DNA from: Deinococcus sp.
GTDB taxonomy: Bacteria > Deinococcota > Deinococci > Deinococcales > Deinococcaceae
Length of the DNA stretch: 64,000 nt
Reading direction: 5' to 3'
Assembly (NCBI RefSeq): GCF_965247185.1
Contig: NZ_CBDFHA010000001.1
Coordinates: 50,215 to 114,214, forward strand
A model generated the notes under the pieces. The model was not told the origin of the DNA. It saw only the letters and a list, made by a program, of their open reading frames with translations, and did not search any database. The position numbers and the translations under genes were made by a program. Positions 5,764-64,000 of the stretch are shown here, one piece after another (the stretch's first letter is position 1; each line of letters opens with the position of its first letter).

Positions 5764-6048
5764 GGTAACGGGCCTCCTTTGAGCCGGAATGGGCGGGACG
5801 AGCTGCCTGGAACCGTACGGAACTGCCGTGGCCGGACGCCGACCACCCGTGTATTTTTTCACAATATGTTGCCGTGCGGATATGGCCCGAACCCTAGCCT
5901 TTCTGAAGGATGAACCTGTGTTCCAGCGTCTCTCACCCGCTCAATAAGGCCAGGGCGACAGGTCGCTAGCGTCCTTTTCCTCTCCGCCACGATCTGCCAT
6001 CACACCGACTGGTCGGTGGTTCGCTGAACCCCTGACGACGCTGCGCCC

Positions 6049-6371
6049 TTGAAGAAACAGGCACAGCAGGTGCACGAGGCGACTGGCCTCTTGGTGACAG
6101 AGGTGACGATCCATCGCCTGTTCGACCAGTTGGGGATCACTTTAAAAAAGACCGTCATCGCCGCTGAGCCAGATGCTGAAGAGCGACGGCAGTCTGTCAA
6201 TGACATTCAGGTATTGTCCTACTCTTCTCGAAACTGAAGGCGCTGGTTCGAGGTGGAAACGGGCGTGTGCTGGAAGACTTCTGGAAGGCCATCAGCAACG
6301 CCTTGTCCACCCTCTCGCCCAAGGATGTGTGGGTCTGGTTTACCGTTGCTTATTCATCACTCTTATTGTGA
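6049..6371 (+). pseudogene. IS630-family transposase remnant (HTH part and C-terminal tail only; DDE core missing; frame change)
   Basis: Frame A reads ...LVTEVTIHRLFDQLGITLKKTVIAAEPDAEERRQ. This is the IS630 pattern: an HTH, then G.t.KKK...AE.D..., then R. A different frame reads KLKALVRGGNGRVLEDFWKAISNALSTLSPKDVWVWFTVAY*, the IS630 C-terminal pattern ...LKallR...L..ai..al....wF...gY. Only about 320 nt remain, so the catalytic core is deleted. The remnant sits in a locally lower-GC stretch. Confidence 0.55.
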
Positions 6372-6671
6372 CAAACGTTCTATTCCCTGTCGCCGAACCG
6401 GAACTCATGTTTCACATAAAAATGGTTAACCTGGCCGACCTTCCTGGCAAGGGATCAGCTCTTTTCAGGCAGAACCGCCGCTCCTTGTCCACTGCGCTAT
6501 TGGCCGCAAAGGCACTCTAGATGTGGTCTCAGTCTTCATTGACCGGGGGTAAGCCGCCGGGGAACGGCCAGATGTGAAATTTTAGAGATATGAGACGCCG
6601 GCGCTTGCGTAAGCTGGCTAAGCAGCGTCTCAACCGCTTTCGCTCTCTCTGCTCCAACAAGGACGGTTCTC

Positions 6672-32730: not shown

Positions 32731-33563
32731 CGCCGTTCAGCACCCACCGGAAACCAGGTCAGGACGGCAGCGTGAAGATCACCCCGGCCAGCGCCGGCTG
32801 GACGTACCTGTGGTTCGGGGCGATGACGCTGAACGACGCCAGCTACGCGGGTGACAGCGGCGAAAATGAGCTGGCGCTGGTGCCGCAGCAAGGCCGCCTG
32901 AGCGTCCACCTGAACGGCGAAACGCATGACCTTTCGAGGCGGGGCGTCTTCGAGGAGCTGCCGACGGTGATGTATCTGCCGCCTCATACCTCCTACACCG
33001 TGAGCGGAAGCGGCACCTTCGCGCAGGGGGGCGCGCCCGCCAGCGGGAAGTACCCGGCGCGCATCATCCGGCCAGGGGCCATCCGGGTGGAACTGCGCGG
33101 CGGCGCGAACGCCTCACGGCAGGTCAGCCATCTGCTCGGCCCCGATCAGCTCGCCGAACGTCTGCTGGTCTACGAGGTCTATACGCCCAGCGGCCACTGG
33201 AGCGGCTGGCCTCCGCACCGGCACGACGGCCAGCTCGGCAGCCTGTACATCGAGGAGACGTACCATTACCGCATTCAGCCTCCCAGCGGCTGGGCCATTC
33301 ACCGCAACTACAGCCCGGAAGACGGCTACGACGAGGCGCTGATCGCCCGCGACGGCGACCTGATTCTCAGCCCGCGCGGCTATCATCCCGTGGCGGCGGC
33401 CCCTGGCAGCAACGTGTATTACCTGAACTTCATGGCCGGGGAAGCGGTGGCGCAGGCCAGAAGCACCCCGCCCACCGACGAGCCGGAGTGGGCCTGGATG
33501 CGCCAGGACTGGGGCGGGCGGGCACTGGCGCTGCCCATCGGCGGCACGACCGCGGAAGACTAG
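32727..33563 (+). CDS. iolB: 5-deoxy-glucuronate isomerase (KduI/IolB family)
   Basis: 278-aa cupin. WSGWPPHRHD ... EETYHY ... GYHPVAAAPGSNVYYLNFMAG matches the IolB pattern. Confidence 0.8.
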   Translation: MTPFSTHRKPGQDGSVKITPASAGWTYLWFGAMTLNDASYAGDSGENELALVPQQGRLSVHLNGETHDLSRRGVFEELPTVMYLPPHTSYTVSGSGTFAQGGAPASGKYPARIIRPGAIRVELRGGANASRQVSHLLGPDQLAERLLVYEVYTPSGHWSGWPPHRHDGQLGSLYIEETYHYRIQPPSGWAIHRNYSPEDGYDEALIARDGDLILSPRGYHPVAAAPGSNVYYLNFMAGEAVAQARSTPPTDEPEWAWMRQDWGGRALALPIGGTTAED

Positions 33564-33634
33564 CGGTTCGGATTCATGTCATGGCAGCAAGCGTCGTGAA
33601 CAGGGGTCCGGTGGCATCAGGAAGGGAACTCGCT

Positions 33635-45104: not shown

Positions 45105-46385
45105 TCACTTGGCCAGCCAGATGGGCGGGGCGTCGCTGCTGAAGGCGCGTCCCTCGGCGTCGAGAAGCTGCATCGGCGATTTGCCGTTCAGCGGAAAGAT
45201 ATACAGGCCGTCTTTGTAGTTCCCGGTTCGCTGGGCGACGAGAGATTGGCCGTCCGGCGACCAGCCGGGCAATCTCTCGCTGCCGTCACCCGACGAAACC
45301 TGCTTCAGCCCACTCCCGTCGATGCCGATGACCCACAGGTGCCCGTTCATGCTGAAGGCCACCCGCTTGCCGTCGGGACTGACGGTAGGCTGGATAGGAT
45401 TCACCAGATTGCGCCCCAGCGGGGTGGGCTTGCTGCTGCCCGGCGAGAGCAGATACAGACCCGGCTCCAGGGTATCGGGGCGCTCCGGGGTGGCGGCCAC
45501 CAGCCGTCCGTCCGGCAGCCAGTCGGCGCTGTCGAGGTCGGGAAAGAAGGCCAAGTCGTGCCCGGCCTGATCGGTGATCTGCACGCCGGTTCCCTTCGTG
45601 GTGTCGTAGGACCGGAACGCCACCTTTCCCCCGTCGCGGCTCAGCCGCACATCGCCGCTCACGTCGTCCTGCTGCCGCCTGAACTGGCCCACGATGTCGC
45701 CGCTGGGCCGCACGAACACCACCGTGCCGTCCTGGATGCTGCCGATGGCCCACAGACCGTTGCTGCTGGCGCTGATGGAGCTGCCCTTGGTGAGGGTCTG
45801 CTCGCGCCCGGTCTTAAGGTCGATGGCGGCGATCATGCCCGGCTGGTACTGCTGGCGGTACAGCAGCAGGCCCGTCAGGGTGCTGTTCGCGGGGCCAGCG
45901 GGCTTGGCTGTCCCGCCCTGGGCCGTTCCGCCCTGCCCGCTCCCCGCCGTCAGGTTGGCCGGGAGTGGCCCGGCAGCGTTGCCCAGCGTGCAGAGGTACT
46001 CGCCGTAGCGCTCGTCGGCATCGAATTTCCCGGTCTTGTCGCCGATGCGGATTCCGGCGTCGCTGCCGCGCCGCTCCAGCATGCTCTGATAGCCCTTCAG
46101 ATAGCCGCTCTGGAAGCTGATGCGGTGGGTCTGCGGCACGTAGCTGTAAGTTCCCTTCTGCTTGCCGTCCACGGTGTAGTTGCCCTTGCCGTCCACCTTC
46201 AGCGTGCTGATGAACGATGAGTGGACGCGCGGAGTCAAGTCGAGTCTCAAGGTGCCGTCCGGGTTGAGGGCGGTGGTGGTGCCGGACTGAAGCAGGTCGC
46301 ACTGGTAGGTACCGGCGGGCGGCAGGGTGGCCGCCGCCGCCTGGGCAGCAGTCAGCAGGAACAGCACGGGAAGAAATGGACGCAT
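45105..46385 (-). CDS. secreted TolB-like beta-propeller (PD40/WD40-like repeat) protein with a novel N-terminal domain
   Basis: I chose the start at 46385 (MRPFLPVLFLLTAAQAAAA), preceded by GGAG. It has repeated SPDG/SRDG-type PD40 motifs (VSPDGKRVAFS, WSPDGQSLVAQ, LSRDGGKVAF). Confidence 0.7.
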   Translation of the reverse strand: MRPFLPVLFLLTAAQAAAATLPPAGTYQCDLLQSGTTTALNPDGTLRLDLTPRVHSSFISTLKVDGKGNYTVDGKQKGTYSYVPQTHRISFQSGYLKGYQSMLERRGSDAGIRIGDKTGKFDADERYGEYLCTLGNAAGPLPANLTAGSGQGGTAQGGTAKPAGPANSTLTGLLLYRQQYQPGMIAAIDLKTGREQTLTKGSSISASSNGLWAIGSIQDGTVVFVRPSGDIVGQFRRQQDDVSGDVRLSRDGGKVAFRSYDTTKGTGVQITDQAGHDLAFFPDLDSADWLPDGRLVAATPERPDTLEPGLYLLSPGSSKPTPLGRNLVNPIQPTVSPDGKRVAFSMNGHLWVIGIDGSGLKQVSSGDGSERLPGWSPDGQSLVAQRTGNYKDGLYIFPLNGKSPMQLLDAEGRAFSSDAPPIWLAK

Positions 46386-46478
46386 AGGGTCTCCTTTTCC
46401 TTTGGCCGAGAACACGAGAGAAGTATGAGAGCGGCGGACAGGGGGAGGGCCGAGAGGACGGACGCCAGGGAACCGGCC

Positions 46479-47738
46479 TCAGCGCCAGGCGTAGCTGTAA
46501 CTCACCACCACGGCGTCGCCCTTGTCGGTCAGCAGCGGGCGCACCTGGCCGTCCAGCGTCAGCGAGTACAGTCTGCCGCTGTTGGCGTTAAAGATCAGGG
46601 CGCGGCTATCCGGCGACCATACCGGGTCAAAGGCGTTGTTGTCGGCGCTGCCCAGCCGTTTGGCCGCGCTGCCGTCCGGGTTCGCCAGCCAGACCCAGCC
46701 GTTGGACACGAACGCCAGGCGCTTGCCGTCGGGGCTGAGCTGCGCCGCCGTCAGATTATCTACCTTCAGCGGGATGGCCCGCCAGCTCTTCAGGTCGGGG
46801 GTGCTGATCCACAGGCCCGCAGGCTCCCCGTCGCGGGCCGTGACCAGCAGCCGCCCGTCCGGGGTCCAGGCCGGAGCCGCTCTGCCGTCCAGATTGGCCA
46901 GCACCTGGCCGCTGCGGTCGCGCACCGTCACGCCGGGGTGATACGGGTCGCCGGTGGTGTAGGCCACCCGCCCACCGTCGGGCGACAGGGATAGCTGCGA
47001 CACGTCACTGTCGCTCTCCAGCTGCGGCAGCACCTTCTGAGGCTGGTAGGTGGAGCTGGCGAACGCGACCTGATCCTGGGTATTGAGGTAGGCCACGCTG
47101 CCGTTCGCACTCACCGACACGTCCCTGCCCGTCAACCGGCCAACGCTGCGCCCGCTGGTCAGGTCGAAGCTCAGGATGGTCTGATTGGAGCTGTACAGCA
47201 GCGTTCCCTTGAGGCCGGGATTGGCGACGCCCGCTTTGGGCGCTGCCGGGCCGCTGGCGGGAGTGTTGGTGGCGGTGCCGGAGCTGCTGCCGGAACTGCC
47301 GCTTGCCTTGGCTTCCAGCTCGCACCAGAAGGCGCTGTCCTCGTGGGTCTTGGGGTCCAGAAACTGCAAGGTGTAGGCCCGCAGGGTGGCCCCGGAGTCC
47401 TGGCGCACGTCCACCGAGTAACGGATGGGATAGCGGCTCATGGGGCCGTTCGTGAAGCGGAAGCCGCCCTGGGCCGCGTTGAAGCTGTAACTTCCCTGCC
47501 CGGTCTGGGTGCCGCCCTGCAGGTGGTAGCTTCCCTTGCCGCTGAGTATGACGCTGCCCAGCGAGCGGTTGGGGCGGCGGTAGCGCAGGGTCGTGCCCAG
47601 GTCGGAGTCGAATTCCGGCGACAGAACCAGACAGGTGTACGCTCCCGCCGGGGGGGCCGCAGACCCGGCGGCCAGCATGCCCGGCCCGCCCGTCAGGAGT
47701 GCTCCCAGATAAAATGCTGCCCACCCTGACTGTTTCAT
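46479..47738 (-). CDS. secreted TolB-like beta-propeller protein, tandem paralog of 45105-46385
   Basis: I chose the start at 47738 (MKQSGWAAFYLGALL...), preceded by GAGGTGA. PD40 motifs are LSPDGGRVAYT, LSPDGKRLAFV and WSPDSRALIF. Its N-terminal domain is parallel to that of the neighbour. Confidence 0.7.
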   Translation of the reverse strand: MKQSGWAAFYLGALLTGGPGMLAAGSAAPPAGAYTCLVLSPEFDSDLGTTLRYRRPNRSLGSVILSGKGSYHLQGGTQTGQGSYSFNAAQGGFRFTNGPMSRYPIRYSVDVRQDSGATLRAYTLQFLDPKTHEDSAFWCELEAKASGSSGSSSGTATNTPASGPAAPKAGVANPGLKGTLLYSSNQTILSFDLTSGRSVGRLTGRDVSVSANGSVAYLNTQDQVAFASSTYQPQKVLPQLESDSDVSQLSLSPDGGRVAYTTGDPYHPGVTVRDRSGQVLANLDGRAAPAWTPDGRLLVTARDGEPAGLWISTPDLKSWRAIPLKVDNLTAAQLSPDGKRLAFVSNGWVWLANPDGSAAKRLGSADNNAFDPVWSPDSRALIFNANSGRLYSLTLDGQVRPLLTDKGDAVVVSYSYAWR

Positions 47739-47891
47739 ACTCACCTCGCCGCTAAGCCGCTGGTCCTGCGCCGCCGGTTCGCTTGCGCACGGCACAGATC
47801 GTCCCATTTGGCCCTGCAAACCCACTCTAACGGTGCCGGACGAGTGCGTTTATTTGAAGGTGCGGCCCACAAAGGTAAGAACCTTAATTGT

Positions 47892-49346
47892 TCAGCCTGG
47901 ATTGATGTTTCCTGCTGGCGATGTCGGGGTGGGTAGGCTCTCAGAACCGTTCCGCAGCCGCGTCTGGGCCTCCCCGATGCGGGCGACCCAAGTGGCCAGG
48001 GTCTCTTCGTCGTGCCCAAGCCGCTCGCCCGCGTGCTGCAACTGCGCCCGCATCGCCGCCGGGCCGGGGCCGCCCAGCGTCTCGCGCCGCGTCACGAAGG
48101 TCTGGGCATCCAGGGCGCTTTGTACCGTGCCGTCCGGGACGGCGAGACCCAGCGCCCGCAGGTCGGCGTCGGTGGCCCTGTGCAGCGGGCGGCCCTCGGC
48201 CCTGAGTTTGCTCAGCAGCGCCTGGGCGCTGTGATGCGCGGCCCGGAAGTCGCCGGTCTGACGGGCCAGGGTGTCGGCGAGTTCGGTCAGGGTGGCGTCG
48301 CTGTGGTCGGCCTGCTCGCGCCAGCGTTCCCGCTCGATCCGCAGGCCCTCCAGCGAGGCGATCAGCAGCCGCAGCCCCTGCGAGAAGTCCGTCCAGAGCA
48401 GCCATAAGGGTTGCTGCACGTCGGTGCCGGGGTCGTTGATGTCGCCGAAGGGCGTGTTGTGGCTGCTGTACACCACCGCCTGCGCATACCCCAGCACCTT
48501 GCTCAGCCGGGTGCGGGCGTGTTCCAGCGCCACCGGATTGCGCTTCTGCGGCATCACGCTCGATCCCTGCACCAGCCCGTCGGCCAGACTCAGCAGGCCC
48601 TGTGAAGCCCAGTTCAGCAGGTCGTACAGACACCTCGACAGCGTGACGGCGCAGGTGCTCACGGCTCCGGCGATTTCCAGTTGCCAGTCGCCGGTCGAGA
48701 CGGCGTCGTAGGTATTCTCGACGGGGCCGTCAAAGGCCAGCAGCGCGGCGGTATAGGGCCGGTCGAGCGGGTGGCTGCTGCCCGAGAGCGCCACCGCCCC
48801 CAGCGGGCTATGGTTCAGGCGGCCCAGCGCGTCCCTAAGCCGGGCGCTGTCGCGCGACAGGCTGTTCTCGACGGCGGCCAGGTAGTGCCCGAAGGTGATC
48901 GGCTGGGCGGGCTGGTGGTGGCTGTGGGCCAGCATCAAAGTGGCGCTCTCAGCCCCCGCCAGTGTCAGGAAACTGCGCCGCAGCCGCAGCAGCTCGTCCA
49001 TCGCCGCCAGGAGCTGTTGGCGAGCGGCGAGGCGGTACACGGTCATGTCCAGGTCGTTGCGCGACAGCGCGGTTCGCAGCGCCCCGGCCCCTGCCGGCGT
49101 CTCGGCAGCCAGCACCCGGTCGAGCGCAAAGAACAGGTCCTCGACGCCCGGATCGTAGTCGGGCGGCTGAAACTCCCGCAGCCGCCGCAACCCTGCCAGC
49201 GCCTCGGCGGCGTGCGGCGTCCCGACCCGTAGCAGGCCCAGGGCGTGGGCACTCAGCGCGTCCAAAAAGTGCGGCAGCAGATGCTGGCGGGCGTGTCGAT
49301 AATCCGGCTCCAGCACGGCGCTGAGGTAGTCAGGGTGCCAGCTCAA
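47892..49346 (-). CDS. fumarate-lyase superfamily protein, argininosuccinate-lyase-like
   Basis: SRNDLDMTVYRL and the signature loop GSSVMPQKRNPVALEH (GSSxMPxKxNP). The N-terminus is atypical for housekeeping ArgH. Confidence 0.75.
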   Translation of the reverse strand: MSWHPDYLSAVLEPDYRHARQHLLPHFLDALSAHALGLLRVGTPHAAEALAGLRRLREFQPPDYDPGVEDLFFALDRVLAAETPAGAGALRTALSRNDLDMTVYRLAARQQLLAAMDELLRLRRSFLTLAGAESATLMLAHSHHQPAQPITFGHYLAAVENSLSRDSARLRDALGRLNHSPLGAVALSGSSHPLDRPYTAALLAFDGPVENTYDAVSTGDWQLEIAGAVSTCAVTLSRCLYDLLNWASQGLLSLADGLVQGSSVMPQKRNPVALEHARTRLSKVLGYAQAVVYSSHNTPFGDINDPGTDVQQPLWLLWTDFSQGLRLLIASLEGLRIERERWREQADHSDATLTELADTLARQTGDFRAAHHSAQALLSKLRAEGRPLHRATDADLRALGLAVPDGTVQSALDAQTFVTRRETLGGPGPAAMRAQLQHAGERLGHDEETLATWVARIGEAQTRLRNGSESLPTPTSPAGNINPG

Positions 49347-49955: not shown

Positions 49956-50294
49956 TTATTGGCCCCAGACTTCTGCCACGATGCCCGCCGCCAGCTCGTC
50001 TACCGTTTCGCGTTCCAGGGCGACGGGATCGATGTCGCGGCCCAGGTCGCGTTGCAGGCAGTACAGCAGCTCGACGCTCATCAGCGAGTCAAAGCCGATG
50101 GCCAGGAAGCTGCGGTCTGCGCCCGCGTCGGTGTCCGCGCCGCCCTGCCGCCGGATGAAGGCCACCTGCTGCTCGATGTAGCGGGTCAGCTCGGCGGATT
50201 TGTCGGCAGAACTCAGGGGTTCCAGGGCGTCTAAGAGGCGGCCCTTGCCGCCCCCCGCGTTTAGGGCCGTCCAGTCGGTCATGGGCTTGGTCAT
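49956..50294 (-). CDS. acyl/peptidyl carrier protein (phosphopantetheine attachment site)
   Basis: 112 aa. FLAIGFDSLMSVELLYCLQRDLG contains the DSL serine motif. Confidence 0.8.
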   Translation of the reverse strand: MTKPMTDWTALNAGGGKGRLLDALEPLSSADKSAELTRYIEQQVAFIRRQGGADTDAGADRSFLAIGFDSLMSVELLYCLQRDLGRDIDPVALERETVDELAAGIVAEVWGQ

Positions 50295-50356
50295 AGCGTC
50301 TCCTCTTGTACAGCTTCCGCTTTCTCTACAAATCCTGCCTCATTTCATGATTGGGA

Positions 50357-51376
50357 TCAGTAGATCATCAGCACGCTGGCCCACGACAGGCCCGCCCCGA
50401 AGCCGCACAGCAGCAGCGTTTCGCCGCGCTCGATCTGGCCCGCCTCCAACGCACCGTGCAGCAGAATCGGGATCGAGGCCGAGACGGTGTTGCCGGTCTG
50501 GGCCAGGTTGCGGGGCATGCGGGCGTCGTCGAGCTTCAAGCGCGCTTGCAGGCCGCCCAGCACCATCCCCGACGCCTGATGGAACAGGAAATGATCTACG
50601 TCGGCCAGCGTCAGGCCGTGCGCCGAGAGCAGCCCCGTCAGATGCGGCGGCACTTGGGCGTAGGTGAAGGCCAGCATCGCCTTGCCGTTCATATGAATCT
50701 GGTCGCGGGTTCGGCGGTTTGGGCCGTCCTGCACGAGTTCCAGCGGCTCACTCGGCGTGGGCAGCCGGGCCGCACCCCCCGGCACGCAGAAGGCCGCGCC
50801 GTGGCTGCCGTCGGTTCCCCAGGCCGAGCCGATCACCCGAGACGAGCCGTCCGAGCGGGTCAGCAGCGTGGCCGCCGCGCCGTCCGAGAACAGCAGCCTG
50901 GTCGAGCGGTCTTGCGGCGAGATCAGCTTGCTGTATGTGTCGGCGGTGACGATCAGCACCCGCCGGGCCGCGCCCGACGCGATCAGGCTGCTCGCCAGGA
51001 TCAGGCTGTAGGTGAAGCCCGAACACGCCAGGTTGAGATCGAGCGCCCCCACCGACGTGGGCAACCCCAAGCGTCCGTGCAGCAGGCAGGCGTTGCCCGG
51101 CAGGCGCTGGTCGGGCGTCTGGGTGCAGAACAGCAGCAGGTCGAGGCTGCCCGGCAACTCCGGCTGCGCGTCCAGCAGCTTGCGGCAGGCGCTCTCGGCC
51201 AGATCGAGCGCCGTCTCGTCCGGGCCAGCCAGGTGCCGCAGCTCCACGCCGGTATGCTTGGCGGCCTCGGGCACGTTCCAGCCTGGAAACTGGGCGTGCA
51301 ACTCGGCGTTGGTCTCGCGGCGGGGCGGCAGATGCACCGCCAGCGCCCCGATCCGCGCCTGGAAGGGGGGATTCAC
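50357..51376 (-). CDS. 3-oxoacyl-ACP synthase III (KAS III / FabH-like)
   Basis: The Cys-His-Asn triad contexts are LACSGFTYSL, FLFHQASGMV and GNTVSASIPILL. The GTG start forms a GTGA overlap with the upstream radical SAM stop. Confidence 0.85.
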   Translation of the reverse strand: MNPPFQARIGALAVHLPPRRETNAELHAQFPGWNVPEAAKHTGVELRHLAGPDETALDLAESACRKLLDAQPELPGSLDLLLFCTQTPDQRLPGNACLLHGRLGLPTSVGALDLNLACSGFTYSLILASSLIASGAARRVLIVTADTYSKLISPQDRSTRLLFSDGAAATLLTRSDGSSRVIGSAWGTDGSHGAAFCVPGGAARLPTPSEPLELVQDGPNRRTRDQIHMNGKAMLAFTYAQVPPHLTGLLSAHGLTLADVDHFLFHQASGMVLGGLQARLKLDDARMPRNLAQTGNTVSASIPILLHGALEAGQIERGETLLLCGFGAGLSWASVLMIY

Positions 51377-52794
51377 GGCGCGGCCCGCCCCGGCTGTGAC
51401 CGCGATAGAGCCCGGAGCTGGGCGAAGTGCGCCTCGGTGATCTCCTCGACCCGGCCCTGCATCAGCGCGGTCTGGATCAGCGGTACTCTGTAGGCTCCCT
51501 CGGCGGTCAGGCGGATGGCCTCGCTGCCGATGCTCAGCAGCCCCAGCTCCTCACAGGCCCGCCAGATCGGGGCGAACTCGTCCAGCACATCGCGCCCGAA
51601 GTTGCGAAGGTAGCTGGCCCGGTCTACGCTCAGCGACTGGAGATTGCGGAACAGCAGCGACAGCCGCAGATCGGCGGGGCTGCGAGCGTAGCCGCACTCC
51701 ACCGGCAGCCGGCCCTGCTCCAGCGCGCCGTAGTACCCCGGCAGAGTGCGGGCGTTCATGAAGGTCCAGCCGCCCGCGTCCGGGGAGCGGTGATGGTCTG
51801 GGAAGTCGCTGATCGCCGCGTAGCCCCAGGCCCAGACATCGTGCGCGTCGAAGCTGCGGCGGCATTCCTCGTAGACGAAGCCAGTCTGAGTACCGGCTTC
51901 GACCCGCTGAAAGTCATAGGGCGTGAGCTGGGCATAGCCGCCCGCCGCCAGCAGCGACACGGCCCCGTGGTACATCTCGCGCACCCGTTCCGGCGAGGGC
52001 AGCTCGTCGCGGTGGTTGAGCGCAAAATCGGTGGCCCCGCCGACGTTCAGCTCGTAGTGGGTGATGTGCTCGACGCCGCTCGCCATCAGGTCTTGCAGGT
52101 CGCGGCGCATGTGATCCAGGGTCTGCTGCGGCCAGCCGTAAATCAGGTCCACGTTGCAGCCCAGGCCCAGCTCGGCGGCCCACTGCACCGCCTGAAAGAC
52201 GTGTCTGGGCGTCTGGGTGCGCCCGCTCAGGCGGCTGAGCCCCTGATCGAGCTGCTGCGCGCCCATGCTGATGCGGGTCACGCCCTGCTCTTTCATCGCC
52301 AGCAGCTTGTCGCGGCTGAACAGTTGCGGAATGCCCTCCAGGGTGATCGGCGTGCCAGGGGGCAGGCTGGGCAGCAGCGAGCGGATCATGCCCAGCAGGC
52401 GCGGGTACTGCCCGACCTTGAGCAGGTTGGGCGTGCCGCCTCCGATAAAGATGCTGCGCGGCTGCAAATGTTGCCAGCGTTCCCGGTAGTGTTCGCCCTC
52501 GCGTTCCAGCGCCGTCAGGTACACGTCGAGCTGATCCTGGCTCACGTAGCCCTCGGTGGGAAACAGACAGTACCCGCAGTGCGACGGCTGCGTGACCAGG
52601 CAGAACGGCAGCGCCACGTACAGCTCGCAGGTGGGCGCGTCCGTTCCGGGTGGGCGCACGTCCGGCGGCGCGTGCGCCCTGTCCTTCCAGAAGCGCGGCG
52701 AGGGAAAGCTGTGCAGCACCTTGTTGACCTGCCGCACACTCAGATGCGTTTCCAGGTAGCGGCGGGCGGCGGGCAGGGTACTCAGGTCGGTCAT
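51373..52794 (-). CDS. HemN-like (class C type) radical SAM enzyme
   Basis: LYVALPFCLVTQPSHCGYCLF (cluster-binding region), IFIGGGTPNLL and RISMGAQQLD are the HemN-family pattern. GGAGG lies 4 nt upstream of the ATG. Confidence 0.8.
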   Translation of the reverse strand: MTDLSTLPAARRYLETHLSVRQVNKVLHSFPSPRFWKDRAHAPPDVRPPGTDAPTCELYVALPFCLVTQPSHCGYCLFPTEGYVSQDQLDVYLTALEREGEHYRERWQHLQPRSIFIGGGTPNLLKVGQYPRLLGMIRSLLPSLPPGTPITLEGIPQLFSRDKLLAMKEQGVTRISMGAQQLDQGLSRLSGRTQTPRHVFQAVQWAAELGLGCNVDLIYGWPQQTLDHMRRDLQDLMASGVEHITHYELNVGGATDFALNHRDELPSPERVREMYHGAVSLLAAGGYAQLTPYDFQRVEAGTQTGFVYEECRRSFDAHDVWAWGYAAISDFPDHHRSPDAGGWTFMNARTLPGYYGALEQGRLPVECGYARSPADLRLSLLFRNLQSLSVDRASYLRNFGRDVLDEFAPIWRACEELGLLSIGSEAIRLTAEGAYRVPLIQTALMQGRVEEITEAHFAQLRALSRSQPGRAAP

Positions 52795-53062
52795 GGGGCC
52801 TCCTCTGGAGCATGTTCAGGGAGTCGGGAGTGGGAAGGAGGAACGACGCTCTGGATGACGTTCCGGTCTATGTTTCTGACACCGTTTTTATGCTCAGTGC
52901 TTTAGAGCTTGGTTGGGGCGGGCTTGGAGCGTTTTTTTGGGGGTGGCGACAGCATACTGATAGGCTTTCCTGTCTCATTTTTGGATGACATGTTGTGGTG
53001 AACTGCTCTTACCGGGTCTGACTCGAAACGGCGAACGGATCGCTGCACTCCATTACAGCCGC

Positions 53063-54148
53063 TCAGCGAAACCTCAGTGCCCCCCTCTCCCCCGCCCCAG
53101 TCAGCCCCACGCCGTCCAGCCCCGACCAGTCGAGTTCCGGCGCGGCAAACAGCGTCATCAGGGTGCAGACCTGCGGCACCGGCACGAAGCCGCAGGCCAG
53201 AAAGGTGGCGGCCTCGCAGAAGTCTGGGCGCGGCGCGACGGCGACCCAGGCCCCGCGCGCCGCGATACCCGCCACGCAGGCGCGCAGCAGCTCGCGCTTG
53301 CCCGCCGGGGGCAGCCCGTCCAGCAGCAGCAGGTCGATGATCTCGGCAGGAATGTGCCCCCGACCCTTCAGCGGCCAGCGAAACGCGCTGGCAAAGCCCC
53401 CCACGCCCGCCCCGTCCGGATACACCAGGGTCTGCGAGCTGCCGGAGGCGTGGAGCTGGTGGGCCAGCGCGGGGCCGTCCCAGAGCTGGCCCAGGCGGTG
53501 TCGCTGCGCCCCGGCGTCCAGCAGCAGGTGGCAGCCCGCCAAATCGGACGGCTGAAAGGGGCGGACGGGTGAGCGCTGGCCCGCGCCCGGAGCCGCTTGC
53601 AGCCGCGACAGCACGCGCAGGCCCAGCGACTCGGCGGCGTGGTCGAGCTGCTCGGCCATACAACCCGCCCGCAGGAAGCGCATCCAGAACTGCACCGGCC
53701 CGATGGTGCGGTAGCGCTTCGGGAAGGCCCGCCGGAAGGCCGACCAGAACTGGTAGGCGCTGGAGCGGGGCGAAGCATTCACGTACCCCAGGAAGAACTT
53801 CAGATGATGGGCGCGGTGCAGGCGTTCGAGCGCGTTGATCAGCCGGGTCGCCACGCCCCTGGCCGCGTACGCCGGGTCTACGCTGAGGTAGCTTCCCTGG
53901 CTGCCCGCCACCTCGTCTCCGCAGAGCCGCACGCGCACCCGCTCGGCCAGGAAGCAGCCGACCAGCCGGGAGCCGTCGTAGGCCGCCAGGTGCAGGTCGT
54001 GGTCAGGGCCGCCCAGCATCTGCCAGCGCAGGTCGGCCCCGCTGTAGTGCGGAATCAGGTCGCGGGCCAGATAGCGCCCCGCCCAGCAGGCGTTGATGAA
54101 GGCGGCCAGCTCGTCCGGGCTGCCGTCGTATGGCCGCACCTCGATCAC
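53063..54148 (-). CDS. two-domain GNAT-like acyltransferase
   Basis: 361 aa. The N-terminal half has GNAT-type VDPAYAARGVATRLINALERL. The C-terminal half has a second acyltransferase-like fold. The GTG start forms a GTGA overlap with the aminotransferase stop. Confidence 0.6.
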   Translation of the reverse strand: MIEVRPYDGSPDELAAFINACWAGRYLARDLIPHYSGADLRWQMLGGPDHDLHLAAYDGSRLVGCFLAERVRVRLCGDEVAGSQGSYLSVDPAYAARGVATRLINALERLHRAHHLKFFLGYVNASPRSSAYQFWSAFRRAFPKRYRTIGPVQFWMRFLRAGCMAEQLDHAAESLGLRVLSRLQAAPGAGQRSPVRPFQPSDLAGCHLLLDAGAQRHRLGQLWDGPALAHQLHASGSSQTLVYPDGAGVGGFASAFRWPLKGRGHIPAEIIDLLLLDGLPPAGKRELLRACVAGIAARGAWVAVAPRPDFCEAATFLACGFVPVPQVCTLMTLFAAPELDWSGLDGVGLTGAGERGALRFR

Positions 54149-55644
54149 GAGAAGGCCCCGTGCCCCTGCATGGCCCGCAGACTCGTTTCCAGCCCGGCCA
54201 CGATTCGCGCCGCGTCGTCCGCCGTGTGCGCCGCCGACAGGTCGAGGGTGGGCAGCGTCTCCATGTACACGCCCTGAAGCCGCAGATAGAGCGTCAGCAG
54301 CCGCGCCGCCCGCACGTTGCCGGGGGTGAACGAACGGTAGTAGGCGCGGGCCGGGTTGCGGGCGTCTGTGGGCGAGACACCTGCCGGATCGGGCGGGTCG
54401 GTCTGGAACCCCAACATCGAGTACAGCCGGGGATGGCCGTCGAGCCGAATCGGGATGCCCAGTTCGGCGCTCAGCCGCTGCACCTGCGCCCCGACGTGGG
54501 CGTGGTGGGCGTCGAGCGGCGCGAACAGCTCCGGCCCCGCCGCCTTGAGTGAGCGCAGTTGCAGCAGCGAGGCGCTCAGGGCCAGCGAGTTGGCCGCGTG
54601 GGTGGTGCTGATCCAGACCTTGCCGCCCAGGTAGTCGCCCAGCAGTCCGGCGGTGCTGGCGCGGTTCATGATCTCGGCCCGCCCGCCCACCATGCTCAGC
54701 GGCAGGCCCAGCCCGGCGGTGATCTTGCCGAAGACGCTCAGGTCGGGCTGCACGTCGAAAGCCTCGGCGATGCCGCCGGGGGCCAGCCGGAAACCCGTCA
54801 CCACCTCGTCGCAGATCAGCGGAATGCCCAGTTCCAGCGTCAGGTCGCGCAGCCGCTGGGTAAAAGCCCGCGCTCCCGCCAGGTCGTTCATCATGAAGCG
54901 CGGCACCGGGTCGAGCAGCACGCCCGCCAATTCATGTGCATGCCGCTCGATCAGCTCGTAGGCCAGCTCGTCGCCGTAGGGCAAGATCAGGTAGTCCGCG
55001 CCCGCCGAGGGCGGCAGCCCCCCGGTGGCGACCTGCGGCACGATGGCCCCCAGCGGCCCCTCGCCCGTTCGCCCGGCCCAGGTCAGCGCGGTATTGACCA
55101 GCCCCGATTCGTGCCAGCCGTGATAGCAGCCCTCGAACTTGGCGATCAGCCCTCGGCGGGTATGGGCGCGGGCCAGCCGCAGCGCCGCCTCGACGGCGTC
55201 CGCCCCCGAATGCAGGAAGGCCACCCGCTCCAGCCCCGGCACCAGCGAGCGCACCAGCTCGGCGAGTTCCACACCCTCCTGCACGAAGTAACCCGCCCCC
55301 GGCCTGCGGCCCAGCGCCTCTCTCAGCCCCTCGACCACCTGCGGCGGGTTGTGGCCCAGGATGCCCGCCGTGTAGCCCATGTGGGCATCGATGTAGTCGT
55401 GCCCGTCCAGGCAGCGCAGATGAGACCCCGCCGCCGACAGGGCGCAGATCGGCAACAGCGGGCTGAAGTACGGCAGTTGCGAGCGGCCCGCCGAGACGCT
55501 CTCCAGGCTGCGGGCGTGCCACTCCAGCGAACGGCGCTGCCGGGTCGCCACCTGCGCCGCCACCCCCAGCAGCGCCCGGTTGCCGCCGCACAGAGTCGCC
55601 AGCGATCTGCCCTGGTCGGCGCTCAGCGTCCAGCCGGCGGTCAC
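54145..55644 (-). CDS. class III PLP aminotransferase (glutamate-1-semialdehyde aminomutase-like)
   Basis: GILGHNPPQVVEGL, FLHSGADAVEAALRLAR, ICDEVVTGFR and DLSVFGKITAGLGLP (PLP-Lys). I chose the GTG at 55644 because it forms a GTGA overlap with the upstream stop. The track ORF extends to 55731. Confidence 0.8.
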   Translation of the reverse strand: MTAGWTLSADQGRSLATLCGGNRALLGVAAQVATRQRRSLEWHARSLESVSAGRSQLPYFSPLLPICALSAAGSHLRCLDGHDYIDAHMGYTAGILGHNPPQVVEGLREALGRRPGAGYFVQEGVELAELVRSLVPGLERVAFLHSGADAVEAALRLARAHTRRGLIAKFEGCYHGWHESGLVNTALTWAGRTGEGPLGAIVPQVATGGLPPSAGADYLILPYGDELAYELIERHAHELAGVLLDPVPRFMMNDLAGARAFTQRLRDLTLELGIPLICDEVVTGFRLAPGGIAEAFDVQPDLSVFGKITAGLGLPLSMVGGRAEIMNRASTAGLLGDYLGGKVWISTTHAANSLALSASLLQLRSLKAAGPELFAPLDAHHAHVGAQVQRLSAELGIPIRLDGHPRLYSMLGFQTDPPDPAGVSPTDARNPARAYYRSFTPGNVRAARLLTLYLRLQGVYMETLPTLDLSAAHTADDAARIVAGLETSLRAMQGHGAFS

Positions 55645-57412
55645 GGCTGGCTCCCCGGCGCGGGCAGGAAGCCGCTTGCTACCATGCCGTCCAGGTAGTG
55701 CCGCACCCGCTCGGCGTCGATGGGTGGGCACTCGGTTCCCAGCGGCAGCAGGCGGCGGGCAGCCTCGGTTCCCTCGAAGTGCGGGTACTTCAAGCCGGTG
55801 GCCTCACCCACGCCCAGGTGCGCGATGATCGGCAGCAGCGGATACAGCGCGTTGTCCGGCCCCGCCGCCTCGATCCGGGTCTGCCAGTCGCCGTAGTCGG
55901 TGGCCCCCAGTGCGTAGCCATATGAACGCAGGTGCCCGAACAGCTCACTCAGCGGGCTGGCCTGCGGATTGACCAGGTGGTAGGTGCCGCCCAGCGCCCC
56001 GGCATCCAGGGCCAGCCGCACCGTTCCCGTCGCCGCGTAATCGGCGGTCACGATGTTGAGCGTGCTGGACACCTGCGGCAGCACGCCCAGTTGCACGCAG
56101 CCCCGGTACAGGCGGCACAGCGCGTCGTTCTGGTTGCTGACCCCGCTGGCGGTGTCGCCGCCGATGATGGCCGGGCGATACAGGCTGACCGGAATGCCGC
56201 GCGCCCGCGCCAGCAGCGCGACGCCCTCGGCCACCCAGCGGCTTTGGGCGTAGCCGCCGATGACGCTGGGCAGCCGCGAGATGTCCTCGGACTCGGGGAT
56301 GCTGGCCCGCCCCGCCAGTCTGGGGCTGCTAAAGATGTTGATGGTGCTGATGAAATGCACCGGTTTGAGCCGCCCCAGTGCCGCCAGCCGGAACAGGTCC
56401 TGACAGGCCGTGACATTGGCGGGCTTCAGGGTGGCGTACGCATACGCGAAATTGACGCCCGCCCCGGCGTGAAAGACCGCGTCCGCCGTTTCAGCTAGCG
56501 CCGTGAACTGCTCTTCGCTCAGCCCGAAGTGCGGCTGGCTCAGATCGCCGGGAACGGCCCGCAGGCGGGCTTCGTCCAGCGGGCGATCCGGCAGGTAGCG
56601 GCGCTGTGCCTGACGCAGGCGTTCCAGCGCGGCTTCCTCTGTCGCGGCCCGCACCAGGCAGTGAATGACCGCCTCGGTGCGGGCCTGGAGTTCGGCCAGC
56701 AGGTGAGCGCCAAAAAAGCCGGTGCCGCCGGTCAGGAGCAGGTGTCGCCAGTGGGCCGGATCGACCACGGCTGCACCTGGGGCAGGCCGGATGTCGTCAG
56801 CAAGCGTCACGTCGGCCCGGAGCTGCGAGGTGGGCCGCTCCAGGCCGCCCGTACCGCCCGTCTCGGCACCAGCCAGCCCCAACTCGGACAAGCCCAGCAC
56901 AGAGAGGTCGGCTTCCGGTTCCGGCGTCAGCGTGCGGGCCGCGCCCACGCCCAGCGCCAGCCCCGCCACCGTCGGCGTGCCGAAGACCAGGGCGATGGGC
57001 AACTCGGTACCGAACGCCGCGCTCAGCTTCACGCCCAGCTCGGCGGCCAGCAGCGAATCGCCACCCAGCAGAAAGAAATCGTCGTGCAGGCCGATGTCGG
57101 GGCGGCCCAGCACCTCGCGGAACAGCTCGAGCACCCGGCGTTCGGCGTCGTTCCGGGGGGCCAGCGCCTCGCCCGCCGCGCCCGCGCTGGGGTCTGGCAG
57201 CGCGTCCAGGTCGATCTTGCCGTTGCGGGTCAGCGGAAAGGCGGGCAGCAGCGCGTAGGCACGCGGCAGCAGGTGGGCGGGCAACTGCCGCTCCAGGCCG
57301 CGTCCCACCGCTGCCAGCAGCTCGGCCCCGCTGGGGGCGGTGGGCTGAAGTTCCAGCTCCGGCAGCAGGGCGCTCAGCAGCTCGTGCTGGGTGGGCGTCA
57401 GGTCGGGGGCGG

Positions 57413-57416
<4 letters not shown>
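55641..57416 (-). CDS. NRPS subunit: adenylation-domain C-terminal motifs (A9/A10) - PCP - thioester reductase (R) domain
   Basis: LPAHLLPRAYALLPAFPLTRNGKIDLDALP (A9/A10), FFLLGGDSLLAAEL (PCP), LLTGGTGFFGAHLL (NAD(P)-binding) and GGYAQSRWVAE (SDR active-site region). Confidence 0.85.
55737..56747 (-). other. terminal thioester reductase (NAD_binding_4-type) domain (approximate)
   Basis: About aa 224-560: TGGTGFFG ... YAQSR ... . Confidence 0.8.
56952..57155 (-). other. PCP (thiolation) domain (approximate)
   Basis: About aa 88-155 of the 55641-57416 product. Ser121 lies in GGDSL. Confidence 0.8.
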
Positions 57417-61239
<3,823 letters not shown>

Positions 61240-61243
<4 letters not shown>

Positions 61244-64000
61244 GCGCCGCCCGCTGCCGGAGGCGCGGCCCCCTCGCCCAGCAGCCCTTTCAGCAGCGCG
61301 TCGAGCTGGGCTTCCGGCAGGCTATCCAGCTCGGCGTCCATTGGAATGGGCAGCGGCGGCAGCGGATCGGCGCTCAGGTTCAGGCCCTCCAGCACGAACT
61401 CGCTCAGGCCGCGCAGGGTCACGCCGCTCACGAACTTCATCGGCGGAATCCTGACGCCGGTCTCGGCCTGAATCTGCCCGCCCAGCTCGACAGCCATCAG
61501 CGAATCCACGCCCATCTTCATGATCGCCTGATCGGCGTCGAGCTTGCCCGGCGAGGTGCCCAGGATGCGGGCGAGCTGCTCGGAGAGCCGCCCGAACAGC
61601 AGCTTCCAGCGCTCCCCCTCGTCCAGCCCGCGCAGCGTCTCCACAAAGTCGGCCTCGCCGCCTGCGCCTGCCTCGCCCAGGGGAGCGCCGTGCAGGGCCG
61701 CCAGCCTCGGAGGGAGCGCCGCGCCGCGCGCCCGGACGAGGGCAGGCCAGTGTAGCGCCGCCACCCCCACCGTCGCGGCGGGCGTATGCCACAGCGCTTC
61801 CAGCGCCGCCAGCAGCCGCGAGACCGGCACCGGCGTCACGCCCGCCGCCTCCAGTTGCGCCGCCACCCCGCTCTGGGTCGCCAGGTAGCCGACGTCAGCC
61901 ACCGCGCCCCAGGCCACGCTCAGGGCGGGTAGGCCCAGGCCCCGGCGGTGCTCGGCCAGCCCATCCAGAAAGGCGTTGGCGGCGGCGTAGTTGGCCTGCC
62001 CCAGGTTGCCGACCAGCGCGCTGACCGAGCTGAAGCACACGAACTGCTCCAGCTCGTCCCGGAGTGTCAGGGTGTGTAGGTTCCAGCCGCCCGCCACCTT
62101 CGGCCCGGTCACGCGGGCAAAGCGCTCCGGGGTCAGGCCCTCGATCAGCCCGTCATCGATCACCATCGCAGCGTGGAAGACGCCCAGCAGTGGCCCAGCC
62201 GTCCGCAGACCGTCCAGCAGCGCGCCCAGCGCCGCCGGATCGGCGATGTCGGCCCGCAGCGTCTGTACTTCTATCCCCTGCCCGCGCAGATGTTCGACCC
62301 GTGCCCGCGCCGCCTCGCTGCCTGTGCTGCGCCCCAGCAGCGCTAGCCGCCGCGCCCCGTGCGCCGCCAGCCACTCGGCCAGCGCCAGCCCAAAACCCCC
62401 CAGCCCGCCGCTGACGACGTACCAGCCGTCCGGGTTCAGCTCCAGCGTCTTCGGCGGACGGATCACCTGCGGGGGCACGCTCTGCGCGTCTTCTTGACCA
62501 GAACAGCGCCCATGAGGACGCTTGGCCGCCTCCATGCTCAGCACCACCTTGCCGGTGTGCCGCGCCTGCGCCATGAAGCGGAAAGCGCCGAGGGCCTGGT
62601 AGAAGGGGAAGACCCGGTAGGTCAGCGGCGACAGTTCGCCGCGCTCGAAGAGGCCCATCACCTCGCTCAGCAGTCGCCGCATCGGGCCAGGGCGATCCAC
62701 CCACATCCGGTCGAGATCGACGGCGAAGTACGACAGATTGTTGCGAAACGGCCCCAGGTCGAGCGGGCTGTTGCCGTAGATGTCGCGTTTGCCGATCTCG
62801 ACAAAGCGTCCGTAGGGCTTCAGGATCGCCAGGCTGCGCCCGATGGCGTCGCCGGACAGCGAGTTGAGCACGATGTCCACGCCCTGGCCGCCGGTCAGGG
62901 CCAGGATGTCTTCGGCAAAGTTGAGGGTGCGCGAGTCGAACACGGCGGCGGCACCCAGGCCCAGCAGCAGCTCGCGCTTTTCGGGCGTTCCGGCGGTGGC
63001 GTACACCGTGGCCCCCACCCGCCGCGCCAGCGCCAGCGCCGCCAGCCCCACGCCGCCCGCCGCCGCGTGGATCAGCACGCTGTCTTCCGGCCCCATCTGC
63101 GCCAGGGTGTGCAGCGCGTAGGAGGCGGTCATGAAGGCGATGGGCACTGCCGACAGCGCCTCGCTGCCCAGGTGGGCGGGTGCGGGCACGGCAAAGGTGG
63201 CGGGCACGGTCAGGTAGGTGCTCAGCGCGTCGCGGGCGCAGATGACCACCCGCTGACCCACACTCACGTCCGTGACACCTTCGCCGACCCGCACCACCTC
63301 GCCCGCCGCCTCCATGCCGTAGGCCCGCCCGGTGTAGCCGCCTTCCAGCGCCTCGTCCGGCAGCATGCCCATCGCCAGCATGATGTCCTTGAAGTTCAGC
63401 GCGGCGGCCTGCACCCGTAGCTCGACCTCTCCGGCGTCGGGGGCGCGGCGCGGCAGCTCCAGATAGCCCAGGCTGCCCAGCACGCCGCTTCTGGGCACCG
63501 TCAGGCGGTAGGCGCTGTCCTGCGGGGCTGATGAAGGAGGCGTCAAGTCGGCCAGCACGGGCCGGGTCAACCTATGCACGAAGCGTTTCCCGCTTCTGAA
63601 CGCCACCTCGTCTTCGGGGCTGGCCGCCAGCAGCTCGGACACCAGGGCGGGCAGCGCCTCCTGAAGTGGGGCCAGCGGGTCGAGATCGAGGCAGCGCGGG
63701 ATGAACTGCGGGTATTCGACTCCGACCACCCGCGCCAGCCCCCACAGCTCCGAGGCCGCCGGGTTGCACAGATCACCGCGCACAGCCTGAGCGCCGCGCG
63801 TGACCAGCCACAGGGCGGGCGCAGCGTCGGGGAAACTCTGCCCCACGCGGGCCAGTGCCTGCACCAGCGCCAGCGCCGCCTGTGCGCCCGTCGCCTCGGC
63901 GGCTTGAATGTCGGCAAGCGTGGGTTCGGCTGGAACCTCCAGGTTCCGCGCGAAGACGACGCCGGTCAGCGGCCCCCTGTGCAGCAGATCGGACAGCAGC
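61240..64000 (-). CDS. type I polyketide synthase, C-terminal part (psiKR - ER - KR - ACP); 5' end beyond the window
   Basis: The frame stays open to position 64000 (LLSDLLHRGPLTGVVFARNL... upstream of the track Met). ER: AAALNFKDIMLAMG, LIHAAAGGVGLAAL. KR: VVSGGLGGFGLALAEWL, HAAMVIDDG, GQANYAAANAFLD. ACP: MGVDSLMAVEL. The downstream NRPS GTG start overlaps this gene's stop (GTGA). Confidence 0.9.
61390..61617 (-). other. PKS ACP domain (approximate)
   Basis: About aa 750-825. Ser788 lies in GVDSL. Confidence 0.8.
61885..62427 (-). other. PKS ketoreductase catalytic domain (approximate)
   Basis: About aa 480-660. A VIDD (LDD-like) motif suggests a B-type KR. Confidence 0.7.
62489..62530 (+). 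repeat. dispersed ~42-nt repeat family, copy located inside the PKS coding sequence (ER-KR linker)
   Basis: tcttcttgaccagaacagcgcccatgaggacgcttggccgcc. On the coding (minus) strand it is read in frame as AAKRPHGRCSGQED. Confidence 0.8.
62536..63513 (-). other. PKS enoylreductase domain (approximate)
   Basis: About aa 118-443 counted from the track Met at 63864. Confidence 0.75.

Follow-up and report, generated by a model that had tools for sequence, protein, structure and literature searches.

Comparative sequence evidence for an oxidase-interrupted adenylation domain divided between two proteins in Deinococcus

Adenylation (A) domains are the gatekeepers of nonribosomal peptide synthesis and have long been treated as indivisible. 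The stretch between motifs A8 and A9 is the usual insertion point for oxidase (Ox) domains, as in EpoB of the epothilone pathway and IndC/BpsA of the indigoidine pathway (PMC8795117). A further arrangement was described in 2024 for the corallorazine proteins Crz1 and Crz2 of Corallococcus coralloides, in which an N-methyltransferase (nMT) domain interrupts the A domain after A8, a stop codon follows, and A9/A10 are carried by Crz2 (PMC11342130). Adenylation activity was obtained only when the two proteins were mixed, Crz1 being inactive alone, and the authors presented the pair as the first experimentally shown split yet functional A domain and called it unique (PMC11342130). Here we report a module of comparable anatomy in a 64,000-nucleotide stretch of DNA from Deinococcus sp. 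(assembly GCF_965247185.1, contig NZ_CBDFHA010000001.1, positions 50,215 to 114,214 of the forward strand), referred to below as the window. Two overlapping genes, ORF1 and ORF2, together encode a nonribosomal peptide synthetase (NRPS) module of the order Cy-A(Ox)-PCP-R, and its A domain is both interrupted by an Ox domain and divided between the two products. A sequence-only reading of the window had noticed the break and had left three explanations standing: a homopolymer sequencing error, a recent inactivating frameshift, or a genuine split whose C-terminal piece is supplied in trans. We favor the last and assign a probability of roughly 0.85 to a genuine, evolutionarily stable two-protein NRPS module in which the A domain is built from two proteins. 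The features of the divided module are these:

57413..61243, minus strand: ORF1, 1276 aa; docking-like N-terminal head, Cy, A (A1-A8 plus hairpin), Ox and C-terminal tail.
59774..61069, minus strand: Cy domain, ORF1 residues ~59-490; Pfam Condensation, DxxxxD present as FDMLILD; PDB matches to BmdB, EpoB Cy, HMWP2 Cy and the bacillamide Cy domain.
58319..59695, minus strand: N-terminal 90% of the A domain, ORF1 residues ~517-975; A1-A7 core, A8 (GRVDRQVKLHGHRIELGEIE, residues 917-936) and beta-hairpin.
57548..58102, minus strand: Ox domain (FMN-type, nitroreductase fold), ORF1 residues ~1048-1232; Pfam Nitroreductase 1.3e-13.
57416..57547, minus strand: C-terminal tail of ORF1, residues 1233-1276, ...ARLKRLNERVAQLADDEAAALLSALKGEPA; lies past the Ox fold, motif RLxxRVxxL(S/T)xxEAxxLLxA.
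57423..57430, minus strand: Shine-Dalgarno (SD)-like element of ORF2, AAGGGGGA, 6 nt before the ATG; includes the G5 run at 57424-57428.
57413..57416, minus strand: ATGA stop/start overlap of ORF1 and ORF2; the same 4-nt overlap (ATGA or GTGA) occurs in seven orthologous loci.
55641..57416, minus strand: ORF2, 591 aa; head, A9-A10, PCP and thioester reductase (R).
57330..57416, minus strand: N-terminal head of ORF2, residues 1-29, MTAPDLTPTQHELLSALLPELELQ...; motif L(S/T)PxQxELLxxLL, kept in orthologues.
57192..57329, minus strand: C-terminal piece of the small A subdomain, ORF2 residues 30-75; helix (AELLAAVGRGLERQ), A9 LPAHLLPRAY, A10 PLTRNGKIDL.
56937..57155, minus strand: PCP, ORF2 residues 88-160; Pfam PP-binding 5e-16, PDB carrier-domain matches; phosphopantetheine Ser121 in GGDS.
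55665..56741, minus strand: R domain, ORF2 residues ~226-584; TIGR01746 5.2e-86, NAD_binding_4 6.2e-56; TGGTGFFG.

Pfam recognizes Condensation, AMP-binding and Nitroreductase domains in ORF1 and PP-binding and NAD_binding_4 domains in ORF2. The EpoB Cy domain matches ORF1 at E 9e-101, and TIGR01733 matches at full length on ORF1 residues 546-950; together with the translation, these results bear out the initial assignment of A1-A8 and Ox to a 1276-aa ORF ending in LKGEPA*. The A9/A10 piece of ORF2 aligns to the A9/A10 region of LgrA, SrfA-C and BmdB, and the catalytic A10 lysine is ORF2 Lys67 (57216-57218). Residues 8-893 of BmdB, a contiguous Cy-A-PCP protein, are matched by ORF1 59-974 (E 2.5e-190) and residues 897-1008 by ORF2 38-149; because these matches abut at 893/897, each ORF supplies exactly the half of the A domain that the other lacks. 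A second alignment, to the DltA profile NF003417, divides in the same way, with positions 10-451 on ORF1 and 454-499 on ORF2, and both alignments agree with the proposal that A9/A10, including the catalytic lysine, open the second ORF (MTAPDL). Between the halves lie the Ox insert, 44 residues of ORF1 tail and about 30 residues of ORF2 head. The module has the anatomy of an interrupted A domain, with A1-A8 before and A9-A10 after an insert recognizable as an FMN oxidase, except that it is not a single polypeptide: a stop codon and the 4-nt overlap follow the insert.

ORF1 residues 1048-1232 align to residues 144-328 of the 336-residue BmdC oxidase (E 5.6e-22). The Ox domain is present as a single copy and not as a pseudodimer, and therefore probably dimerizes like BmdC, which would fit a dimeric polyketide synthase (PKS) upstream (for background on the dimer state of Ox and PKS proteins, see PMC8795117). 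The pocket segments of the A domain, read by eye, are FDLSVY, WNSVPA and LGGATEASIW; taken with the Cy context and the similarity to BmdB, they suggest a Cys-type domain.

At the junction itself, the minus strand from 57440 to 57411 reads gtcggccttgaagggggaacccgcATGAcc. The 3' end of ORF1, ttg aag ggg gaa ccc gca tga (LKGEPA*), is overlapped by the start of ORF2, ATG ACC GCC CCC GAC CTG (MTAPDL), and the ATGA shared by stop and start is read directly in the sequence at the place first reported. Also confirmed were the GGGGG run at 57428-57424, with 7 nt between it and the ORF2 ATG, and the single open frame that one added G would produce (...LKGGTRMTAPDL..., 1867 aa, Cy-A(Ox)-PCP-R). The latter is uninformative, since the frames at any ATGA overlap differ by one base and a single-base insertion will always fuse them. 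Runs of at least five G or C are frequent in ORF1 and ORF2 (14, or about one per 400 nt; the GC content of the window is 67%), and the G5 run near the junction is therefore not remarkable in itself. It appears better read as the SD region of ORF2, and the ATGA overlap as a predicted site of translational coupling of ORF2 to ORF1.

The sequence-only reading had proposed a comparison with orthologous clusters, and the related clusters turn out to be split at the same residue. A protein search was made with a 521-aa query spanning the junction in the 'fused' reading, and orthologues were collected from this search, from contig look-ups and from a plasmid search. Each of the nine closest database proteins either ends or begins at the junction. 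P0001-P0004 match only the part before it (54-77% identity over 67-69% of the query), and P0006, P0013, P0016 and P0020 match only the part after it (56-73% identity over 29-31% of the query). The best junction-spanning proteins are only 29-31% identical, and no close fused relative was found with this query. Seven orthologous loci, 56-78% identical, break at the homologous residue with an ATGA or GTGA overlap, with ORF1-like genes of 1267-1312 aa and ORF2-like genes of 588-616 aa; they come from D. ruber, QL22, KNUC1210, GCA_004801415, GCA_965191165 and two metagenome lineages. The split loci, with their overlaps, are as follows:

D. ruber (L001): 4-nt overlap.
Complete Deinococcus plasmids KNUC1210 (78% DNA identity) and QL22 (67%): 4-nt overlap.
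GCA_004801415.1, SSNX01000006.1 (L037): 4-nt overlap.
A metagenome-assembled genome (L006): 4-nt overlap.
One metagenome lineage in three samples (L003-L005): 4-nt overlap.
A more distant metagenome contig (L002, ENA ERZ25039498 contig_68548): GTGA overlap.

The gene order common to these contigs is PKS, ORF1-like, ORF2-like, aminotransferase, GNAT-like, radical SAM, KAS III and ACP, and the nearest DNA relative of the window is the 311-kb plasmid of Deinococcus sp. KNUC1210. The DNA of the window very probably comes from a Deinococcus relative recovered by metagenome assembly. No existing record was found for the exact ORF2 sequence, and a contig search with ORF2 returned only distant NRPS matches (at most 49% identity, in short segments), with no Deinococcus orthologue and no species count. 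The DNA at the junction varies by lineage (aaggaggaatcctcATGA, aggaaggagccgtcATGA, tgaggccatcATGA, gaggaaggcctgccATGA, gggggggaaggATGA and gggtgatgggctGTGA), and the orthologues carry aaggagga, aggaaggag, tgagg, gaggaagg or gggggggaagg at the SD position. A G run is found at the junction in only two loci, the others being AGGAGG-like. Because the junction DNA differs between lineages, the G run is not a conserved feature; the lineages have in common the overlap and, at that distance, an SD-like, purine-rich element. On L037, at about 7835-7852, a G7 run (ctcgggggggaaggATGA) lies directly before the ORF2 start, at the SD position, and is longer than the run in the window.

Some related clusters are also broken elsewhere. 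The KNUC1210 cluster (L007, plasmid NZ_CP092189.1, 8855-15937), which is the closest relative, is interrupted at several further places: its ORF1 is annotated only as an 867-nt condensation fragment and a 399-aa Ox protein, the DNA between the two being left unannotated, its ORF2 is cut inside the PCP (FFVLGVIRCSPPNWA*), and its aminotransferase is in two pieces, while the ATGA junction is intact. This cluster is either decaying or from an error-rich assembly. On L002 (2071-6004), the ORF1 orthologue is called as pieces of 877 aa and 444 aa that overlap by 35 nt, and the C-terminus of the first piece looks out of frame. A frameshift within the A domain, whether genuine or introduced in assembly, is the probable cause, and it is separate from the conserved GTGA junction.

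The sequence across the break was checked in Logan contigs assembled independently from two public runs, which represent different samples from one study. In both runs, 57405-57436 is covered with 0 mismatches and 0 gaps (X1 record 3 covers 56759-58460 at depth 23, X2 record 9 covers 55000-62000 at depth 19.5). Selection was estimated from codon alignments of the window with four orthologues. The A9-A10 segment of ORF2 (residues 37-85) is 65-84% identical with dN/dS of 0.28-0.41, and dN/dS is 0.23-0.32 for R, 0.19-0.36 for Ox and 0.37-0.61 for PCP, so that A9-A10 is no less conserved than the catalytic domains; rough as these values are for short segments of a 67% GC genome, they are incompatible with a dead downstream half. 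Every orthologue retains the A10 Lys (NGK), the PCP Ser (GGDS) and the TGxTGxxG of the R domain. Identity to the orthologues is 47-70% for the ORF2 head and 43-59% for the ORF1 tail.

Both ends of the break resemble protein termini found elsewhere. The ORF1 tail motif is common to about 25 inspected representatives in which Ox is the natural C-terminus (e.g. RLLERIKNLTPDEVAALLEA and RLIDRVAALSEDEATALLTA), and fused embedded Ox domains do not carry it. From the end of Ox to A9 there are 30-67 aa in most fused embedded proteins (88 in one) as against 101-103 aa in the split family. The gene neighborhoods of all four retrievable, unrelated Ox-terminal NRPS proteins (L034, L038, L039 and L040) were examined, and in 4/4 the downstream protein starts with an ORF2-type head motif. 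Its gene overlaps the upstream gene by a 4-nt ATGA/GTGA in L034, L038 and L039 and by 8 nt in L040. The N-termini compare as follows:

L034, downstream protein: MSANSRIAALTPSHAELLGLLLDE, then TE.
L038, downstream protein: VSDPLEALSPEQRELFLRL, then a C domain.
L039, downstream protein: MTSMDAQLRALAPEQRQLLEALL, then a C domain.
L040, downstream protein: MDDLLRHLAGLAPEERELFILL, then a C domain.
Window, ORF2: MTAPDLTPTQHELLSALLPE, then A9-A10, PCP and R.

Because the tail and head motifs recur at the boundaries of Ox-terminal proteins, the break can be read as a standard inter-protein junction placed inside an A domain. All the marks of such an 'Ox-tail/head' junction, a type defined in this analysis and not a curated family, are present here, namely a tail motif, a head motif and an overlapping stop and start. 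A related motif pair, ...EDQLDALLAELL before the stop and then ...LSPDEKRALLLRLL, occurs at the PKS-ORF1 boundary in all lineages. Since the motifs recur at other junctions, including this one, tail and head would form a docking pair, the tail being probably a docking helix and the head its probable partner. In the window (61240-61243 and flanks) and in L001, L003, L007, L008 and L037, the PKS C-terminus takes the form ...(E/P)(D/A)QLDALLxxLL and the ORF1 N-terminus ...LSP(D/E)EKRALLxRLL. The likeness of the PKS-ORF1 and ORF1-ORF2 motif pairs raises the question of how junction specificity is kept. An AF2 model of the concatenated halves had a mean predicted local distance difference test (pLDDT) score of 82.8 with confident domains, and pLDDT was below 50 over the last 17 tail residues and the first 25 head residues, the tail being modeled as a helix leading into a low-confidence end; for ORF2 1-160 modeled alone, confidence stayed high without ORF1. 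Foldseek returned only generic NRPS A/PCP structures, and a literature search found no paper on an Ox-tail docking element.

To judge by related Ox domains, the arrangement is rare. An exhaustive HMMER search of 1.84 billion representatives, with Ox and tail together as the query, gave 2327 matches, the best 150 of which were classified by the order of their A8, Ox, A9/A10 and PCP segments. Some of these have A8-Ox(-Ox)-A9/A10-PCP in one protein and many have A-PCP-Ox with a C-terminal Ox. The order A8-Ox-stop was found, among the best 150 of 2327, only in the split family (P0121, P0004) and in P0129. P0129 (2836 aa) was rejected as a second such family, as its gene fills the whole of an 8.5-kb contig and is therefore truncated. 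Pairwise core distances of the Ox domains do not separate embedded from terminal types. A bootstrapped neighbor-joining tree built from 134 Ox domains recovers the split family as monophyletic in 40/40 replicates, with a sister group that holds only terminal/post-PCP Ox domains in 39/40 replicates, a grouping that carries little weight because terminal/post-PCP types make up 69% of the taxa and midpoint rooting was used. Another apparent A-domain break lies on L035 (ENA ERZ25039550 contig_1717, 223-6446), where a 1593-aa protein stops after the A core in a low-complexity tail that looks out of frame. The next ORF (P0017), with a GTGA overlap, starts at the end of A7, has A8 14 residues in (VIELLGREDGQVKIHGHRIELGEIE), and continues with A9/A10-PCP-Ox. 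In contrast to the conserved split, this break looks like a frameshift.

With these data in hand, a homopolymer error, by which the true genome would have G6 and one fused Cy-A(Ox)-PCP-R gene of 1867 aa, is effectively refuted and barely deserves credence. The G5 run 7 nt before the ATG and the single frame opened by an extra G speak for it, and it was contigs rather than raw reads that were inspected; but identical contigs were obtained at a depth of ~20 from two runs on different samples, and the break falls at one and the same residue in seven orthologous loci from independent assemblies, which include the isolate genome of D. ruber and two complete plasmids. In the 40 nt upstream, five of these seven show no homopolymer of more than 3, and the ORF1 tail is a natural C-terminus in many other proteins. 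Hardly more plausible is a recent inactivating frameshift that left the module a pseudogene in two pieces. Decay does happen in this cluster family, as the further frameshifts in ORF1, PCP and aminotransferase in the KNUC1210 and L002 clusters show. The break, however, is common to lineages with dS of ~0.5-1.2 and amino-acid identity down to 56%, and is therefore old; both halves, the downstream region included, are under purifying selection with every catalytic motif intact; and a random event would not yield an SD element, an ATG and a 4-nt overlap kept in every lineage. The hallmarks of a frameshift or pseudogene are thus lacking: the break is reproduced, close orthologues are split, and neither relaxed selection nor motif loss is seen downstream. 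Equally improbable is recoding, whereby -1 ribosomal slippage or transcriptional slippage on the G run would give some fused protein beside the separate ones. ORF2 does lie in the -1 frame, the GGG codon within G5 could in principle re-pair one base back, and L037 has a G7 run at the same position. Nevertheless, no canonical X XXY YYZ heptamer occurs at the junction, five of the seven orthologues have no slippery run, and a stop two codons upstream of the ORF2 start closes that frame in L002; programmed frameshifting was set aside because the slippery run is not conserved. Among the three initial explanations, the evidence supports the genuine split with its C-terminal piece supplied in trans.

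A somewhat larger, if still small, share of probability goes to a split that is real without the A domain being rebuilt, so that the A9-A10 segment of ORF2 would be vestigial and the PCP loaded by another adenylating enzyme or by ORF1 alone. Experimental support for trans-complementation comes only by analogy, from Crz1/Crz2, AF2 gives no confident tail-head contact, and aminoacylation in trans is known in BlmIII/BlmIV, to go by the title of reference 84 in PMC8795117. Set against this, few segments of ORF2 are as well conserved as A9-A10 with its A10 Lys, the conserved operon encodes no stand-alone A domain, and in the only tested analogue, Crz, the first protein was inactive until the second restored activity. 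Several points also weigh against the two-protein A domain that we prefer. The read evidence consists of contigs, which could hide rare or minority variants, and both runs come from one study; the extra frameshifts in the KNUC1210 and L002 clusters mean that some copies may be decaying or badly assembled. The dN/dS estimates are rough, and conservation is lowest in the head and tail (43-70% identity). AF2 offers no support for tail-head packing, although it says nothing either way. The Cys specificity is deduced from context, similarity and pocket residues, and physical docking, activity in trans, substrate and product are all predictions. What was directly observed nonetheless leads us to prefer a genuine two-protein module: how its domains are arranged, a sequence that is reproducible, a break that orthologues share, selection acting on either half, and tail and head motifs that recur at other protein-protein junctions.

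How such a divided module might work can be outlined. ORF2 would be made by translational coupling at the ATGA overlap, and the ORF1 tail and ORF2 head would act as a docking pair that tethers the two proteins. The small A subdomain, which must rotate in catalysis, would be rebuilt non-covalently, ORF1 contributing the A8 hairpin and ORF2 the helix-A9-A10 piece. The rebuilt A domain would activate Cys and load the PCP of ORF2; Cy would condense the PKS-made acyl chain with Cys and then cyclize; Ox would oxidize the thiazoline to a thiazole; and R would release an aldehyde, which the adjacent aminotransferase could convert to an amine. The predicted requirement for both proteins in adenylation is supported indirectly, by purifying selection on A9-A10 and the lack of any other A domain in the operon. 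The product of this plasmid-borne Deinococcus PKS-NRPS cluster is probably an alkyl-thiazole aldehyde or amine. The evidence from tail, head and tree also hints at how the split arose, and it is tempting to speculate that an Ox domain with its docking tail, the stop/start overlap and the docking head of the next gene were inserted as one cassette into the A8-A9 loop of a Cy-A-PCP-R module, with the docking pair alone sufficing for reassembly. We consider this possible rather than probable. Were it true, tail and head would constitute a portable natural connector and the A8-A9 loop a natural split site, usable for cutting and recombining NRPS modules, and the fused, Ox-interrupted A domains might have arisen later, through loss of the stop codon.

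The divided module sits in a conserved operon, whose other genes in the window are listed below:

61240..64000, minus strand: type I PKS gene, 3' part; ADH_N/ADH_zinc_N, KR and PP-binding (Pfam), ER-KR-ACP; runs off the window end.
49956..55644, minus strand: rest of the conserved operon (Pfam), with gene order as in D. ruber, QL22, KNUC1210 and the metagenome loci.
54145-55644, minus strand: class III aminotransferase (Pfam).
53063-54148, minus strand: GNAT-like protein (Pfam).
51373-52794, minus strand: radical SAM protein (Pfam).
50357-51376, minus strand: KAS III (Pfam).
49956-50294, minus strand: ACP (Pfam).

The PKS frame stays open as far as the window end; it corresponds to residues 1610-2469 of the KNUC1210 PKS and carries a docking-like motif (...LPEAQLDALLKGLL...) at its C-terminus; the ORF1 start lies in a GTGA overlap with this gene. 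Within the window, GTGA/ATGA overlaps occur at four of the six operon gene junctions, with G-rich elements upstream at the same distance. The whole PKS-NRPS cluster is plasmid-borne in both complete Deinococcus genomes (L007, 311 kb; L008, 541 kb), with a phosphopantetheinyl transferase gene just upstream, and one of these two plasmids is typed as mobilizable (MOBP). Just downstream of the cluster in the window, 45105-49346 on the minus strand encodes an argininosuccinate-lyase-like protein and two PD40/beta-propeller repeat proteins. At 33491-33586 on the plus strand, ARAGORN calls a 96-nt tRNA-Ala(GGC), and Rfam at gathering score finds no tRNA or other family in the window; the call is probably a false positive or an odd tRNA.

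The window module adds a second, independent case to the sole experimentally shown natural functional split of an A domain, with another insert and in another phylum, its activity here being predicted. The split is stable across at least eight lineages and has apparent dedicated docking elements at the break. For annotation, this means that such breaks should not be 'repaired' or flagged as pseudogenes. As to evolution, the case suggests that A domains can acquire tailoring genes along with the boundaries of those genes. For the engineering of NRPS modules, it indicates a split site that occurs in nature and a connector pair to go with it.

In the open-access literature, no paper was found on this cluster or on an Ox-interrupted split A domain, nor anything relevant on PKS, thiazole or nonribosomal products of Deinococcus. 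The best structural relative of both parts is the BmdB/BmdC bacillamide system (PDB 7ly4-7ly7), which is alike in its thiazoline-to-thiazole chemistry on a PCP-bound intermediate, as predicted here; unlike bacillamide synthesis, where the oxidase is separate and the A domain intact, the window module has its oxidase fused into an A domain that is itself divided. As in EpoB, a Cy-A(Ox)-PCP module, here a predicted thiazole-forming one, is fed by a PKS, but EpoB and IndC/BpsA are single polypeptides, and the window Ox tends, in the tree, to group with C-terminal (post-PCP) Ox domains rather than with the embedded ones of fused relatives. With NRPS proteins that end in PCP-Ox (the BlmIII/MtaD arrangement), the window module shares the type of Ox and the C-terminal tail motif (RLLxRVxxLSxEExxALLxA), and there too the next protein starts with L(S/A/T)PxxxELLxxLL, with a 4-nt overlap in 3/4 cases. 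Those proteins, however, have a whole A domain and PCP before Ox, with the junction between modules or before TE, whereas here the junction falls inside the A domain. The initial remark that a gene break at this point would be unusual was a fair one, although it has one experimentally proven precedent in Crz1/Crz2 (PMC11342130). As in that pair, the insert comes directly after A8, a stop codon follows it, and A9/A10 open the next ORF before a carrier domain. Judged by the published description of Crz, whose insert is nMT and not Ox, the window module is best regarded as an analogue and not a member of the crz family. In place of the nMT insert, C-type Gly module and myxobacterial host of Crz1/Crz2, what is new here is an Ox insert in a Cy-type module that ends in R, in Deinococcus.

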